Positions 5,621 through 48,144 of a stretch of DNA of 52,819 nt are shown here, in pieces. Under the pieces are notes generated by a model. It was not told where the DNA came from. It saw only the letters and a list, made by a program, of their open reading frames with translations, and ran no database searches. This DNA comes from Thermoplasmata archaeon (GTDB lineage Archaea > Thermoplasmatota > Thermoplasmata > Halarchaeoplasmatales > Halarchaeoplasmataceae), in NCBI GenBank assembly GCA_003551065.1, contig PULU01000092.1, positions 1 to 52,819 on the forward strand, in the 5' to 3' direction. Each line of letters begins with the position of its first letter. Position 1 is the first letter of the stretch. A program made the translations under genes and the position numbers.

Positions 5621-6058
5621 TTAGTCTTTCTCTTCTTTTAAGAACCTCATCTCGTTCCAGAGGATCTCATGTTCCAGGTCGTTCTTATCTAAGAAATCGC
5701 TGATCTTATTTGTGATCATGTCTATTTCGGATTCTTCCTCATCGATCCTCGGGTAGATAAAGAATTCAACCCTATCTCTATCTATGGGGAAGATCATCCT
5801 ATACCTTGCTTCCCTGTTATGCCCCATAGGTTTCCTGTTCTGCTGCAGATCTTCCAGATTCATCCTGATAAGCATCTCGATATATTCTTCTCCACTGTCT
5901 TCTGGATATTGATCAGCGATATCCATGAATAGATCGAATAACTCGGGAAATATCGGAGCTAGATCTTTGAACTCTACTTCTTCAGCGAACCTGAATAAAC
6001 TGCTCCTCTTTATGATATCGAATTCTTTCTGTTTCATCTGATTCTCAACCCAATTCAA
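5621..6058 (-). CDS. Hypothetical acidic protein downstream of ileS
   Basis: 145-aa ORF with host-like composition, 28 nt after the ileS stop. Confidence 0.75.
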   Translation of the reverse strand: MNWVENQMKQKEFDIIKRSSLFRFAEEVEFKDLAPIFPELFDLFMDIADQYPEDSGEEYIEMLIRMNLEDLQQNRKPMGHNREARYRMIFPIDRDRVEFFIYPRIDEEESEIDMITNKISDFLDKNDLEHEILWNEMRFLKEEKD

Positions 6059-6086: not shown

Positions 6087-9000
6087 TCATTCGATAGCTT
6101 CCACCCAGATAGTGATATCCTTGCCATTTATGGACCAATCCTTTTCTAGTCCTTCACCACTACCTTCATCTAGCGTCTCAGAGAGGGTCTCGTTCATTAT
6201 ATAGCTCTTCATCTCCTCAACAGCCTCGTGAAGATCATGATCTCCTTTGTATCTAGTATGTATCTTCTGGGTGTATCCTAGCTCCAGGTCTTTTCTCATG
6301 GTCTGTATCCTTCTGACGACGTCTCTAGCTAGACCTTCGATCTCCAAGTTCTTATCGATATCTACATCCATGAAGACCTTTACCTCTTTACCTTCACTAG
6401 CCGTGTATCCGCTTTTGATATCCTCTAGTATCTCAACATCTTCTTCGGTGATATCGAAGCCGTCCAATTCAGCTTCACCTTCATCTAAAAGATCTTTCTT
6501 CAGTGAATTTGCATCAGCAAACTCGATCAGTTCAGCGACTTTATCAGCATCACCTTTAAATTTTGGTCCTAAAGAGGAATAGTTCGGTTCTATCCTAGTT
6601 TCGGTAAGACCACTTTCATCACCGGAGAAAACGAGTTCCTTGACGTTCAACTCGTCCATCAAAATATCTTTGAATATCTCGCAAGCTTCTTCAAAGGAGT
6701 CGTTCTCAGAGACCACTACTGCCTGGTTTAATGGTTGCCTGAGCTTGATGTTCTCCTGCTGTCTCGCATTCCTACCCAATTCAGCGATCTTTATGACTGA
6801 ATCCATGTGCTGTTCTAAACTCTCTTTGATATACTCTTCATCGCTCTCAGGATAATCCAACATATGCACGGATCCTGGACCATCTTCAGTTTCTTTGAAT
6901 AAAGACTGATATATCCTTTCGGATAAGAACGGGGTAAAGGGTGCCATCACCTGGGTCAGTGTCTTCAAGGTTTCATAAAGCGTATTATATGCACTCTCTT
7001 TTTCCTTATCAGTCCCTTCCCAGAATCTCCTACGACTCCTTCTGAGGTACCAGTTACTCAGATCGTCTATGAATTTCTCTATAGCCCTGGTCGATCTATG
7101 GACTTCGAGCTCGTCTAATCCATCTCTTACTTCATTGATAAGAGTATTTTTCTTGGATATGAGCCATCTATCGATCTGGTCGTTGACCTCGTATTCACCA
7201 GGTTCAAAATCATCTATATTTGCATTGCTGGTGAAGAAGGATACCACATTCATCAAGGTATTCAAGGTCTTACTGATCTTCTCGGATACCAGCTCATCAC
7301 TGAATTTTGTGGATTTCCAAACCGGTGAACTCAGGAAATATACACGAGTAGCGTCCGCACCCAAATTCTCTAGTACTTCCATGGGTTCCACAGCATTACC
7401 TTTGCTCTTGCTCATCTTTTCCCCATCTTCATCCAGCACCAGACCTAGAGTCATACAGCTCTTGTAAGCCGGTTCGTCGAATAAAAGCGAACTTATAGCC
7501 AATAGACTGTAAAACCATCCTCTAGTTTGGTCTAAAGCTTCTGTGATGAAATCTATAGGGAAAGCTTCGTCGAACCCATCTTCGTTCTCAAAGGGATAAT
7601 GAAATTGTGCGAAGGGTGCGCTTCCGCTGTCATACCAACAGTCGATCACGTAATCTACTCTTTCCATGGTTCTGGAACATTCTGGACATTCTAGCTTCAC
7701 CCTATCCACCCATGGTTTATGGAATTCAAAATCCTCTTCTAGCGGTTCTTTAGCTAGATCTTCTAACTCCTCTCGACTGCCGACACAGTGTTCATGCCCT
7801 TCATCACATATCCATATAGGTAATGGGGTTCCCCAGAAACGGTTCCTACTCAGTGACCAATCCTTCAATTCGTCCAGGAAATTTCCGAACCTACCGTGTT
7901 TAAGATGTTCGGGTTTCCATGTCACCATATCATTATTATCTATGAGTTTTTGTTTCTCCTGAGAAGTTCTGATGAACCAGCTTTCAAGGGCATAGTAAAG
8001 TAAAGGAGATTCACATCTCCAGCAGAACGGGTAAGTATGGGTTACAGTCTTTCTTTTGATCAGATCTCCCCTTTCATCGAGGTTTTTCATTATCCCATTA
8101 TCTGCATCTTTAACGAACTGGCCAGCATGATCCGATACAATATTCTTGAATTTACCATCTTCATCGACAGGATTCACCAGTGAAACACCTTCTTCTTTAC
8201 ATAATTCAAAGTCGTCTTCACCGAATGCTGGAGCTATATGGACGATACCCGTTCCTTCTTCTAAACTAACAAAATCAGCATGGGTAACATAGTGACTCTT
8301 ACTATCAGAATCCACATAATCGAACATGGGTTTGTATTCCTTCCCTAAAAGGTCCTCACCTTTCATGGTTTCAAGGACTTCGGCATCTTCGAATATATCA
8401 TCTACAAGCTTTTCTGCAAGATAGTATCTTTCTTTATCATGTTCAACCAAGGCATAGTTCAGATCTTTTCCCACGACAAGAAGAAGATTCGAGATGAGTG
8501 TCCAGGGTGTGGTAGTCCAGGCCAAAAAGTAAGAATCTTCATCTTCCAACTTGAAACGGACATATATCGAGGGGTCTTCCGTTTGTTCATATCCTTGAGC
8601 GACTTCGTGACTTGATAAAGGCGTCCCACATCTAGGACAATATGGGACAACTTTGTAACCTCTCTCTAGAAGACCGTTCTTCCAGTGCTGTTTTAAACTC
8701 CACCAAACACTTTCGATATAATCATCTCTCATGGTCACGTAGGCGTTTTCATAATCGATCCAGAAGCCTATCCTTTCGCTCATATCCTCCCATTCTTTCT
8801 GATACTTGAACACACTCTCTTTGCAGAGTTCGTTGAACCGTTCTAACCCGAACTCCATTATCTCTTCCTTCGTATCTATACCTAACTGCTTTTCGACTTC
8901 GATCTCGACCGGCAGTCCATGGGTATCCCAACCTGCTATATTTGGGACGATCTGATATCCTTCCATGGTCTTGTATCTAAGATAAACATCTTTAGCGACT

Positions 9001-9200
9001 CTCGTCAAAACGTGACCCATGTGCGGCATACCGTTGGCTGTCGGCGGTCCCTCTGTGAAACTGAATTTTTTATCTCTTCCCCTATCTCTAGAGTTCTCTG
9101 CGATATCATGTGATCTCCAGAACTCGAGTATCTCCTCTTCCTTCTCCGGTATCGGCGCATTCTTGTCCAAGGGCTTGAACTTCCCGTTATTTTCACTCAT
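6087..9200 (-). CDS. ileS: Isoleucine--tRNA ligase
   Basis: EGPPTANG.PHMGH (HIGH), GWDTHGLP, WTTTPWT, DQTRGWF, KMSKS. Start set at ATG 9200 with SD GGAGG at 9212-9208; the ORF track uses in-frame ATG 9233. Confidence 0.97.
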   Translation of the reverse strand: MSENNGKFKPLDKNAPIPEKEEEILEFWRSHDIAENSRDRGRDKKFSFTEGPPTANGMPHMGHVLTRVAKDVYLRYKTMEGYQIVPNIAGWDTHGLPVEIEVEKQLGIDTKEEIMEFGLERFNELCKESVFKYQKEWEDMSERIGFWIDYENAYVTMRDDYIESVWWSLKQHWKNGLLERGYKVVPYCPRCGTPLSSHEVAQGYEQTEDPSIYVRFKLEDEDSYFLAWTTTPWTLISNLLLVVGKDLNYALVEHDKERYYLAEKLVDDIFEDAEVLETMKGEDLLGKEYKPMFDYVDSDSKSHYVTHADFVSLEEGTGIVHIAPAFGEDDFELCKEEGVSLVNPVDEDGKFKNIVSDHAGQFVKDADNGIMKNLDERGDLIKRKTVTHTYPFCWRCESPLLYYALESWFIRTSQEKQKLIDNNDMVTWKPEHLKHGRFGNFLDELKDWSLSRNRFWGTPLPIWICDEGHEHCVGSREELEDLAKEPLEEDFEFHKPWVDRVKLECPECSRTMERVDYVIDCWYDSGSAPFAQFHYPFENEDGFDEAFPIDFITEALDQTRGWFYSLLAISSLLFDEPAYKSCMTLGLVLDEDGEKMSKSKGNAVEPMEVLENLGADATRVYFLSSPVWKSTKFSDELVSEKISKTLNTLMNVVSFFTSNANIDDFEPGEYEVNDQIDRWLISKKNTLINEVRDGLDELEVHRSTRAIEKFIDDLSNWYLRRSRRRFWEGTDKEKESAYNTLYETLKTLTQVMAPFTPFLSERIYQSLFKETEDGPGSVHMLDYPESDEEYIKESLEQHMDSVIKIAELGRNARQQENIKLRQPLNQAVVVSENDSFEEACEIFKDILMDELNVKELVFSGDESGLTETRIEPNYSSLGPKFKGDADKVAELIEFADANSLKKDLLDEGEAELDGFDITEEDVEILEDIKSGYTASEGKEVKVFMDVDIDKNLEIEGLARDVVRRIQTMRKDLELGYTQKIHTRYKGDHDLHEAVEEMKSYIMNETLSETLDEGSGEGLEKDWSINGKDITIWVEAIE

Positions 9201-9330
9201 CTGGAATCCTCCAAAAAACAAAATTATAACCATAACTGGGCGGATGGTTTATCTAATAGCTAATTATGATCCTTTCTTGATTAGCTGCCCAGTTCATAGG
9301 AATATCAGATAAGTATTCGATATTTAAATA
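9201..9330 (-). promoter_or_regulatory. ileS promoter plus structured ~97-nt leader (candidate attenuator)
   Basis: TATA 9328-9321; perfect stems AACTGGGC/GCCCAGTT (8 bp), AGCTAAT/ATTAGCT (7 bp), AACCAT/ATGGTT (6 bp); U-tract TTTTGTTTTTT before the SD. Confidence 0.6.
9253..9297 (-). CDS. Candidate leader peptide MNWAANQERIIISY upstream of ileS
   Basis: ATG 9297 lies 24 nt below TATA box TTTAAATA (9328-9321), i.e. at the expected start site; ATC-ATA-ATT at 9270-9262; TAG at 9255-9253. Confidence 0.5.
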   Translation of the reverse strand: MNWAANQERIIISY

Positions 9331-9343
9331 TTACCTATCGGGG

Positions 9344-10138
9344 TTAGTCTTCTTGGATCGACTCTGGTGCATCTGCGAAAGCGATGAGAGAATCTATCTC
9401 CATGAAATGCAGGTCACCAAATATCACAATGCACTGAAGCCCCTCTCCGAAATCGTGGTTTAAGATATCGGTTGGGTAGCCGGCTTTCAATTCTGGATCG
9501 GACGAACCGGCCCTTGCTATCCCAGCTGCGACCGTTTCTTCGTTGATCACTCCCTCTGATAAGGTCTCTTCGAGATGTAGCAGCGCTTCCATGCCTTCAT
9601 TTACCGTCATGAACTCCTCATTCTTTCCGTTTATATCGAGCAGTACCAGAGAGTGTAACCCCAGCTCCTGATTGTTTCTGATCCCCTGGTAAGGACTCTT
9701 TGGATAATTCTCCATTACTTTGAAAAAGGGCAGGGTCACTGTCTTTCCAAATTTGTAATGTTGAACCCCCAATATCGAAGGAGCAGCGGAGAATATCGAT
9801 GATGAATGTATCACCCTAGTCTCGATCCCTTCTTCTACGGCCCTCAACCTTAGATCGACATGTGTAGTAGCTGCCATGGGATCACCTGCTGTCAAAAACA
9901 CAACTTTTTTGTCCCTAGCTTCTTTGATAGGTGACGCCTGCTGTTCAACACCTTCCCTGTCTAATATCTGAATATCGACTCCCAACTCCTTTTCTATCTT
10001 AGTAAGATCTGTTCCTGCTAGATGACTAGTATAGAATTCAGAATACACTACGTCGGCTCTCTGAACGATCTTTTTACCTTTCAAGCTGATATCTTTTTCG
10101 TCGTACAATCCCAAACCGATGAATATTAATTCTCCCAT
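9344..10138 (-). CDS. dph5: Diphthine synthase
   Basis: LIFIGLGL, EFYTS, GDPMAATTH.DL, YKFGKTVT, GLHSLVLLDI, LHFME. Confidence 0.95.
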   Translation of the reverse strand: MGELIFIGLGLYDEKDISLKGKKIVQRADVVYSEFYTSHLAGTDLTKIEKELGVDIQILDREGVEQQASPIKEARDKKVVFLTAGDPMAATTHVDLRLRAVEEGIETRVIHSSSIFSAAPSILGVQHYKFGKTVTLPFFKVMENYPKSPYQGIRNNQELGLHSLVLLDINGKNEEFMTVNEGMEALLHLEETLSEGVINEETVAAGIARAGSSDPELKAGYPTDILNHDFGEGLQCIVIFGDLHFMEIDSLIAFADAPESIQED

Positions 10139-10156
10139 CTGTTTTACCTCTTTGAC

Positions 10157-11164
10157 ATGCTCTGTTTGAAAGTTCCTAAAACTAAAGGAGAAAAGGTTAG
10201 AAATAAGCTTTTGGAAGAAGATCTACTCGAAAAACGGGGTCGGATCACCTCTGATGAGGAATTCCTATATTTCCCGATAAAGAAAGTACCAAGCGAAGAT
10301 ATGGATTTCGAAGTCGTTGAAAAAGAAGTAGAGATGAGGGAAAATAAATTCAGTGATTACAGGGAGGCCGTTGAGATACCTTCAGGATTCAAAGAGAAAC
10401 TCCCTTCAAGTTATGATATAATAGGGGATATTGCTATAATAAAGATACCAGACGAGTTAAAAGATCACAAAAACGAAATCGGGGATGCTATACTCAGAAC
10501 CCATAATAATGTGAACTCGGTCCTTGAGGATCATGGGGTCATAGGGGAGTTCAGGATCAGAGATGTTGAAACCATAGCAGGTATCGATAAAAAGACCACT
10601 ATACACAAGGAATATGGTATTGAACTAGAGGTAGATATCACGAGTACATATTTTTCACCTAGATTGGCTACTGAACGTTGGAGAGTAGTTAAAAAAACTC
10701 AACCAAAGGAAAAAGTTCTAGATATGTTCGCAGGCGTAGGGCCGTACAGCATATTGATAGCTAAGAATGTAGACGTTGATAGGATCTACTGTATAGATAT
10801 CAATCCTCAAGCTATTGCACTTCTGAAGAAAAACGCTGAGCGAAATAATGTGGTAGATATCATCGATCCTCATCTCGGTGACGCTAAAAGATTAGCTCCG
10901 ATGTTCAAAGCAGATCGGATCATCATGAATCTTCCTCATTCATCCTTTGAATTCCTTGAATCCGCTTTAAAAGCAGCAAAAAGAGAATGTACCATACACT
11001 ATTACGATATGGTAGATGAAGAAGAACAGGAAACTCGGGTTGAGAGAGTGAAGCAAAAAATAATAGACTATGGGTTCGAACCTAAAATAATTGAACAGAG
11101 GGATGTCAGAAGTTATTCAGCTTATACCATACATAAAGCATTAGACATCGAAGTTAGAAGATGA
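10157..11164 (+). CDS. trm5: Trm5-family tRNA m1G37 methyltransferase
   Basis: SYDIIGDIAI, YFSPRLATER, DMFAGVGPY, DINP, IMNLP, IHYY. Confidence 0.9.
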   Translation: MLCLKVPKTKGEKVRNKLLEEDLLEKRGRITSDEEFLYFPIKKVPSEDMDFEVVEKEVEMRENKFSDYREAVEIPSGFKEKLPSSYDIIGDIAIIKIPDELKDHKNEIGDAILRTHNNVNSVLEDHGVIGEFRIRDVETIAGIDKKTTIHKEYGIELEVDITSTYFSPRLATERWRVVKKTQPKEKVLDMFAGVGPYSILIAKNVDVDRIYCIDINPQAIALLKKNAERNNVVDIIDPHLGDAKRLAPMFKADRIIMNLPHSSFEFLESALKAAKRECTIHYYDMVDEEEQETRVERVKQKIIDYGFEPKIIEQRDVRSYSAYTIHKALDIEVRR

Positions 11165-48044: not shown

Positions 48045-48144
48045 TAGCGGGGAGTGGATTTGAACCACTGGTCTCCGGGTTCCTCAGGTGCATTTAGCTG
48101 CACCATATGAGCCCGACGGGTTTTCCTAGCTACCCTACCCCGCT
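48045..48144 (-). tRNA. Initiator tRNA-Met(CAU) with 25-nt intron (48081-48105) at 37/38
   Basis: Cloverleaf AGCGGGG/CCCCGCT (A1-U72), D stem GGGT/ACCC, three G-C pairs in anticodon stem, CAT anticodon, TTCAAAT loop; BHB CTCA/TGAG with TAT and GAA bulges; CCA not encoded. Confidence 0.95.

Follow-up and report, generated by a model that had tools for sequence, protein, structure and literature searches.

The window, by which we mean the whole stretch of 52,819 nucleotides analysed here (contig PULU01000092.1 of GenBank assembly GCA_003551065.1), comes from a soda-lake metagenome-assembled genome (MAG; G000), 64% complete, of an uncultured member of the Thermoplasmatota. It carries on its minus strand ileS, the gene for isoleucine-tRNA ligase (IleRS), behind a short leader in which a very small upstream open reading frame (uORF) holds three consecutive isoleucine codons. 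The gene is identified by a TIGR00392 score of 937.9 bits against a cutoff of 621.4 and starts with the ATG at 9200, while upstream of the leader lies dph5, which ends at 9344 on the minus strand. The uORF reads ATG AAC TGG GCA GCT AAT CAA GAA AGG ATC ATA ATT AGC TAT TAG, its start codon (9297-9295, minus strand) beginning 23 nt past a TATA box and its stop codon (9255-9253, minus strand) standing 52 nt before the ileS start. A first-pass annotation had proposed for this arrangement a leaderless leader peptide that reports isoleucine-tRNA charging through ribosome stalling, and the positions that it gave for the TATA box, the ATG, the reading frame, the isoleucine codons and the spacing to ileS are all correct when read on the minus strand. 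Near-identical ileS loci are found in Thermoplasmatota MAGs, among them Candidatus Saliniplasma, Candidatus Natronoplasma and Thermoplasmata MAGs without such a name. The features of the locus are collected in Table 1.

Table 1. Features of the ileS leader in the window.
Feature	Position	Strand	Basis or remark
TATA box TTTAAATA of the leader/ileS promoter	9328-9321	minus	sequence
Leader mini-ORF MNWAANQERIIISY, followed by the stop	9253..9297	minus	predicted to begin on the transcript 5' end or no more than about 2 nt from it
Ile-Ile-Ile codons ATC ATA ATT (putative sensor codons)	9262..9270	minus	sequence
P1 5' arm AACUGGGC (codons 2-4)	9287..9294	minus	covariation
P1 3' arm GCCCAGUU	9234..9241	minus	begins 12 nt past the uORF stop
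Candidate anti-Shine-Dalgarno CAUCCGCC	9239..9246	minus	abuts and overlaps the P1 3' arm; moderate support
U-rich tract UUUUGUUUUUU, candidate termination site	9213..9223	minus	directly 5' of the Shine-Dalgarno sequence
Shine-Dalgarno sequence GGAGG of ileS	9208..9212	minus	conserved column block in the alignment
ileS (isoleucine-tRNA ligase, 1037 aa)	6087..9200	minus	TIGR00392

The leader was followed through 55 distinct ileS leaders overall, with tests of reading frame, promoter and minimum free energy (MFE) structure made on 44 of them and codon counts and nested folding on 34. All 55 carry a short ORF at the predicted transcript start, and in 49 this holds at least three consecutive isoleucine codons. 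Readable upstream DNA was available for 26 ileS loci among 40 relatives, 23 of which have a short ORF with at least two consecutive isoleucine codons in the same place; no such uORF was seen at the other three (L022, L023 and L029), and L024 is a doubtful member, having two isoleucine codons only and a weak stem and being missed by both covariance models. The first-pass annotation had proposed relatives as the place to look for persistence of the uORF and its isoleucine run with synonymous change, and such persistence was found: uORF, TATA-distance position and run are kept in 20 of 20 evaluable ileS loci of the window's family (f1), uORF and run recur in 24 of 24 further MAG loci of that family (L031-L054, which add 11 distinct sequences) and in 10 of 10 further covariance-model matches checked, and four more families keep them as well. 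The DHVE2-labelled loci L057-L063 have no leader.

The way in which these short frames vary points to translation. When the longest (ATH)n run was searched in all three frames, all 44 leaders had it in the frame of the 5' ATG, with eight distinct ATG-to-run offsets of 15 to 36 nt, so insertions and deletions have respected the reading frame. The isoleucine codons of 34 runs comprise 52 ATC, 38 ATA and 36 ATT, and of 500 uORF codons 29.8% specify isoleucine, whose share in the proteome is 7.9%. In a few leaders an ATG interrupts or flanks the run (IIIMIS in L026, IMI in L153); the third position is otherwise A, C or T. The stop codon follows one to three codons past the run, and the uORF as a whole spans 9-18 codons, the middle of the peptide being variable in sequence and length. 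Frame maintenance together with synonymous turnover of the isoleucine codons is the evolutionary signature of a translated ORF, and on that signature the uORF is very probably translated.

Archaeal TATA boxes are centred near -26/-27 from the transcript start. In 43 of the 44 leaders, 20-24 nt separate the end of a TATA-like octamer from the uORF ATG, and the remaining leader (L009) fits this spacing if its upstream ATG is the start; by that geometry the transcript should begin at or next to the ATG, and the uORF is accordingly predicted, from the promoter, to be leaderless. The idea of a stalling sensor is thus supported by the conserved uORF and isoleucine run, while the further claim of the first-pass annotation, that both isoleucine isoacceptors are sensed, stays only suggestive: ATA is mixed with ATC or ATT in 31 of 34 runs, and AUA, at 48% of genomic isoleucine codons in the window genome, is not rare. 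In many family leaders (L002-L050) the last sense codon of the uORF is Glu, written GAG or GAA with synonymous variation, in endings such as SE, TE, GE and EE, which may reflect a constraint acting on termination or on the C-terminal residue.

Counts within the single genome are suggestive, not decisive, and it is the comparative data that decide. The intergenic DNA of the window genome contains 2610 small ORFs of 6-30 codons that start with ATG, and three consecutive isoleucine codons occur in 14 of them, or 0.54%, in agreement with the earlier rough estimate of under about 1%. Seventy-one small ORFs have an A/T octamer at TATA distance on their 5' side and a gene on the same strand no more than 200 nt downstream; of these the ileS uORF alone has such a run, and one other has three consecutive leucine codons. 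Neither covariance-model search nor small-ORF scan found a leader of the same kind elsewhere in this 64%-complete genome, and its ValRS-like and LeuRS-like genes have no uORF with a cognate run. The LeuRS-like gene (G000 contig C32) is preceded, at about 2000-2060, by a TATA-positioned ORF of seven codons, MGRSYFL, with no cognate codon run, and the ValRS-like gene (G000 C43) itself stands at TATA distance and is apparently leaderless.

The uORF is enclosed by a stem, here called P1. In the window, codons 2-4 (AACUGGGC) are the reverse complement of GCCCAGUU, 12 nt past the uORF stop; across the leaders the 3' arm starts 12-18 nt past the stop. Pairing of codons 2-4 with a segment beyond the stop leaves the isoleucine codons in the loop, which measures about 26-57 nt, with the first isoleucine codon 8-20 nt (mostly 11-14 nt) from the 5' arm. 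P1 is part of the MFE structure in 43 of 44 leaders. In a MAFFT alignment of the family only, not fitted to structure, 96.9% of 224 cells over 28 leaders are paired, a value reached by 0 of 500 shuffles, with slid controls at 25-52%, and one P1 pair splits into 15 GC and 13 AU. Alignments fitted to a model gave 96.0% of cells paired for 41 leaders and 94.6% of 409 cells for 52 leaders; in each, 6 of 8 pairs show compensatory changes (43 cells in the larger) and 0 of 500 shuffles reach the observed value, slid controls for the larger being 16-48%. These two fitted alignments lean towards structure, and kin are not independent in their covariation counts; L017, L024 and L027, which fall below the model threshold, lie outside them, and L043 was dropped to remove the best-scoring antisense row.

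Pairing is kept where the arms have diverged in sequence, as in AACUCGGCA/UGCCGAGUU, AGCUCGGCA/UGCCGAGCU and AACUCAGCA/UGCUGAGUU, in GAACCG.UACAUG with its complement, and in AUGAGCU/AGCUCAU, where the start codon itself is included. G-U pairs within P1 place the RNA on the ileS strand. Where codon 2 changes from Asn to Ser (AAC to AGC), the 3' arm changes from GUU to GCU (25 GC and 24 AU among 52 leaders); the substitution moves with its pairing partner, and it is thus RNA pairing, not peptide function, that shapes the recurring MNWA/MSWA start of the peptide. RNAalifold run on the first MAFFT alignment, in which divergent rows were misaligned, returned no structure. A hairpin within the window's P1 loop (AGCUAAU/AUUAGCU) was set aside as it is not conserved.

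What follows P1 differs between families. The region from P1 to the ileS AUG is unstructured and U-rich in f1 (33 leaders; mean -1.4 kcal/mol, longest U run 5.6 on average), with the first U run at a median of 4 nt after P1 and a second abutting the Shine-Dalgarno (SD) sequence. In f4 (10 leaders) it forms an SD-containing hairpin (mean -8.6 kcal/mol) and the longest U run is 3.0, while f9 and f20 (5 and 2 leaders) are intermediate. The four leaders of f17 have a CCAGA/UCUGG hairpin abutting the SD and U5-U7 between SD and AUG; in L135, L159, L162 and L164 this CCAGA/UCUGG plus U5-U7 has the shape of an intrinsic terminator at an odd place. A T run of at least five within 15 nt 5' of a GGAGG SD is found in 4 of 127 genes of the window genome, ileS included, and the U tract is thus not an ordinary SD context.

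A third element is a C/U-rich block directly 5' of the P1 3' arm and partly overlapping it (CAUCCGCC in the window; UUCCUCC, ACCUCC, CCCUCC or AACCUU elsewhere), each block being complementary to the SD and flank of its own leader. This candidate anti-SD and its flanks covary with the SD (UUCCUCC/GGAGGAA, ACCUCC/GGAGGU, CAUCC.CC/GGAGGAUG), the same layout recurs with other sequences in f20 and f9 (CCCUCC; AACCUU/AAGGUU), and the best anti-SD 10-mer ends 0 to +9 nt from the P1 3' arm start in 32 of 44 leaders. Cognate anti-SD:SD duplexes are stronger than non-cognate ones (mean -8.49 against -7.84 kcal/mol, permutation p 0.005); compared with shuffled anti-SD segments, however, the pairing is barely better than composition (z only -0.54, 6 of 34 below -1), and it is weak in L007 and L020 (-4.6). 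We regard this pairing, P2, as moderately supported. P1 was the sole conserved helix found, this candidate pairing aside, and no antiterminator was found. With P1, the U tract and the anti-SD, none of them part of the first-pass annotation, the leader would be an RNA switch and not a bare uORF.

The distribution of the element is narrow. A covariance model of the family, run on the window genome, gave one significant match (9195-9299, E 1.5e-17; next E 0.85). A broader model, run on an evenly drawn sample of 151 genomes of the class, matched 17 of 17 genomes in f1 (plus the window genome, also f1), 13 of 15 in f4, 5 of 8 in f9, 4 of 5 in f17 and 3 of 4 in f20, with one leader per genome. These family counts are lower bounds, since a leader seen by eye in G032 (f9) was missed by the model. 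In a phylum sample of 151 genomes no true match lay outside the class. Every true match examined stands immediately before an ileS-like gene, and this holds for the divergent ileS of f20 too. Eleven genes of a second ileS-like type (36-38% identity), from other families, lack an Ile-run leader. One f4 genome, G027, has two ileS-like genes, L026/L151 at 48% and L141 at 37% identity to that of the window, and only the first has the leader.

Four weak matches in f18 and f3 were false, as were L112, L136, L150 and L155-L158, which have no uORF and do not adjoin ileS. One of these, L136 (G090:C135:1145-1207), is a plain GC hairpin followed by UUUUUGUUUUUU, and shows that hairpin-plus-U-tract elements occur in the class. 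Rfam gave no match at gathering threshold in the window, and at E values up to 10 the region 9150-9350 returned three chance matches only, far below their cutoffs, none of them placing the leader among the T-boxes. As judged by alignment and database comparison, the leader is a clean new RNA family without an Rfam match; with 52 aligned members and compensatory pairs, it lends itself to searches of other lineages and of the DNA upstream of other genes.

Taken together, the leader is very probably a translated regulatory element that senses isoleucine, with ribosome occupancy of the uORF as the measure of Ile-tRNA. In the reading that we favour it acts in cis and reads the supply of Ile-tRNA through the time that a ribosome spends on the leaderless mini-ORF; taken whole, with termination as the output in f1, we consider this reading evenly poised between right and wrong. 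With the P site as reference, a ribosome covers positions from roughly -12/-15 to +15, or about 28-30 nt. The P1 loop exceeds this footprint by little and the first isoleucine codon lies near the 5' arm, so that a ribosome on the uORF and P1 would exclude each other, and P1 could close only when the uORF is empty. Because the 5' AUG, too, is buried in P1, sensing would take place once, by the first ribosome and during transcription, which speaks for a decision made co-transcriptionally.

When Ile-tRNA is plentiful, the ribosome would finish and leave the uORF and P1 would snap shut; in f1 the closed stem would raise termination at the U tracts that follow, and little ileS mRNA would be made. 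When Ile-tRNA is scarce, the ribosome would wait on the isoleucine codons, P1 would stay open, RNA polymerase would read through and IleRS would rise, a homeostatic response. We lean towards this sign, in which stalling raises ileS expression, because a self-reinforcing loss of IleRS seems untenable, mainly on physiological grounds. Hairpin-assisted termination as the f1 output is put forward more tentatively. In f4 the same sensor would be joined to another platform, the SD-sequestering hairpin, in the manner of riboswitches with interchangeable expression platforms, where one sensor serves family-specific outputs (U tract in f1, SD hairpin in f4). Equally tentative is the general picture that may be drawn from this, a modular "ribosome riboswitch" with family-specific platforms in which the pioneer ribosome on a stem-locked Ile-run mini-ORF decides whether polymerase stops at a U tract before ileS.

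Several observations weigh against this reading or parts of it. All sequences are from MAGs, many of them close kin, and the counts overstate independence. Isoleucine runs are weakened in 6 of the 55 leaders, to two codons in five and to I-M-I in L153. The steric exclusion of P1 is an estimate from general footprint sizes and not from a structure. The 11 sequencing runs that match window positions 8200-10200 are all DNA, from salt- and soda-lake metagenomes, with no RNA run among them. With regard to termination, a U run lies at most 3 nt from P1 in only 11 leaders, and f4 and f9 mostly have none; stable hairpins precede 9.3% of T runs after genes and 9.8% of intragenic ones in the window genome, and this lack of enrichment means that termination here is normally hairpin-independent and that a hairpin-dependent attenuator would be unusual. 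A scan for bacterial-type promoters and terminators found no terminator, being limited to loops of at most 8 nt, shorter than that of P1. According to a 2026 review, archaeal termination in vitro can be enhanced by a hairpin if the terminator is bacterial-like, while oligo-T alone can suffice (PMC13675443); a second source describes archaeal terminators as generally lacking hairpins (PMC7515710).

Nested folding adds a further objection, and with it an alternative of opposite sign. Over 34 leaders the probability that the SD is unpaired was 0.62 in free RNA, 0.29 with a ribosome stalled on the isoleucine codons and 0.41 with a ribosome at the stop, so that in these calculations the SD is more open when P1 is formed, and stalling, which releases the anti-SD beside the 3' arm, would lower ileS translation unless P1 and the anti-SD:SD helix stack as a pseudoknot. 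The leader could then be a translational switch in which P1 holds the anti-SD, and a ribosome on the uORF, the more so when stalled on isoleucine, frees it to mask the SD; ileS translation would fall when Ile-tRNA is short, as a feed-forward or stringent-like brake. The cognate preference, the covariation of the flanks, the position of the anti-SD at the P1 3' arm and the recurrence of the layout in f20 and f9 all agree with such a switch. We nevertheless hold it to be unlikely. Low IleRS would mean less charging and hence still lower IleRS, a self-reinforcing loop to which every aminoacyl-tRNA synthetase (aaRS) control known to us runs opposite; the P2 pairing on which it depends hardly exceeds composition; and, with the uORF AUG hidden by P1, steady-state sampling would end after the first ribosome. 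In f4, moreover, the SD is masked regardless of P1, at 0.23-0.34 unpaired in all three states, a result that speaks against the favoured reading as well.

The same two helices might instead cooperate. In L012, L126, L131, L133, L027 and L127 the 3' arm of P1 follows right at the end of the anti-SD (offset 0 to +2), so the helices could stack and not compete, and P1 with an abutting anti-SD:SD helix would form an H-type pseudoknot in which the uORF AUG and the ileS SD are both concealed. With a ribosome stalled, P1 would break, the anti-SD:SD helix would lose its stacking partner and the SD would open, as in an attenuator of the mycobacterial poly-Cys type. The direction is homeostatic, and there is precedent in leaderless poly-Cys small ORFs (10.1101/834739) and in the pseudoknot of the actinobacterial LEU element (PMC1262725). 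Against it, anti-SD and arm share 2-3 nt in the genus of the window, so that only AUCC/GGAU is left, the support for P2 is moderate, and the conserved U tracts of f1 go unexplained; we rate this model as rather improbable.

That nothing is sensed at all, that P1 serves at the 5' terminus for stabilisation or processing or as a thermometer, and that the ORF in its A/U-rich loop is incidental, we judge very improbable. P1 does pair the very 5' end and could shield it from a 5' exonuclease, ATH triplets are common in an A/U-rich loop, and the fold z-score of the window leader taken alone is just -1.44. Such a stem would not account for an ATG at TATA distance in 43 of 44 leaders, a run in frame in 44 of 44 at eight offsets, third positions of A, C or T in the run with a stop one to three codons beyond, or an element that occurs only before ileS and once per genome. 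Hardly credible is a functional micropeptide, or direct T-box-like binding of tRNA-Ile to the loop codons without a ribosome: the MNWA/MSWA N-terminus and C-terminal Glu recur and the isoleucine codons are displayed in a closed loop, but the N-terminus tracks RNA pairing and the middle varies in sequence and length (9-18 codons), and a direct sensor would need no start codon, kept frame or nearby stop and has no T-box or other Rfam match here.

Transcription attenuators with leader peptides are well known in bacteria (trp, his, ilv, pheST). The ileS leader shares with these attenuators a short ORF with a cognate-codon run upstream of a supply or charging gene, a folding that would follow ribosome position and, in f1, a GC-rich stem followed by U runs. 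It differs in its predicted leaderless start, where theirs is SD-led; in having a single long-range helix that encloses the ORF, with no antiterminator found, in place of overlapping 1:2, 2:3 and 3:4 segments; in its control codons, which stand in a loop and not in a stem arm; and in its archaeal polymerase, in a genome whose terminators are normally hairpin-independent.

The closest resemblance is to the leaderless poly-Cys sensory ORFs of mycobacteria (10.1101/834739), with the LEU element also close. The poly-Cys ORFs share the leaderless mini-ORF, the consecutive cognate codons, a duplex involving the SD and control by ribosome pausing. They are bacterial and stand before cysteine metabolism operons at several loci, whereas the archaeal element has one locus per genome and an aaRS target; and there the stalled ribosome blocks the SD-sequestering structure, while here the modelled anti-SD lies 3' of the stalled footprint, beyond the reach of such blocking, and folding predicts more masking. 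The LEU element upstream of leuA in Actinobacteria likewise has a uORF with a cognate run in a compact conserved structure and a possible SD pseudoknot (PMC1262725); its Leu codons pair with the SD where the isoleucine codons here are unpaired in a loop, and its authors report codon mutations without effect on regulation.

The T-boxes of ileS, including the translational T-boxes of Actinobacteria (PMC1262725), share with the leader the gene and the tRNA-Ile charging signal, and their platforms, too, may be transcriptional or SD-sequestering. Binding of uncharged tRNA to a T-box is direct and needs no translation, whereas the leader has the signature of an ORF and no Rfam T-box match; it is a functional analogue of the ileS T-boxes, not a relative.

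Full-text literature searches, judged mostly from titles and abstract openings, found no archaeal leader-peptide attenuator. What is new here is the stem P1, the modular platforms and the defined distribution, for a kind of mechanism that is known but not yet established in archaea. How archaea match the level of their aaRSs to demand is largely unknown, and to our knowledge they have no T-boxes. If the proposal is right, amino-acid sensing by a stalling ribosome is not confined to bacteria, and the leader would be the first amino-acid-sensing attenuator in archaea and a direct regulatory use of the coupling of transcription and translation. It would also offer a natural, sequence-defined test case for the influence of a hairpin and a trailing ribosome on archaeal termination, as well as a compact, recodable sensor in which a swap of the codon run should swap the amino acid sensed.

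Three candidates around the leader were considered and rejected. The in-frame ATG at 9233 in the list of the ORF finder is not the ileS start, because the closest relative (G002) carries an in-frame TAG in that stretch. A second promoter, TTATAATT, that would give a leaderless ileS was dropped because its A/T block is not conserved while the GGAGG is. The notion of a tRNA mimic, prompted by a GAU before the run, found no conservation in a by-eye check of the leader list.

The IleRS of the window scores against models of the mupirocin-resistant, type 2 enzymes MupA and MupB nearly as high as against that of ileS. N-terminal regions with 53-63% identity to this IleRS are encoded in MAGs of bacteria (Bacillota, Atribacterota, Solirubrobacterales and others), a resemblance that suggests transfer between domains. 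Directly 3' of ileS lies a 145-aa ORF (5621-6058, minus strand) that is possibly co-transcribed with it and has no NCBIfam match. Elsewhere in the window, Rfam places a tRNA at 48045-48144 (minus strand) where ARAGORN reports none; at 100 nt against a model of 71 positions, it is probably an intron-containing archaeal tRNA.

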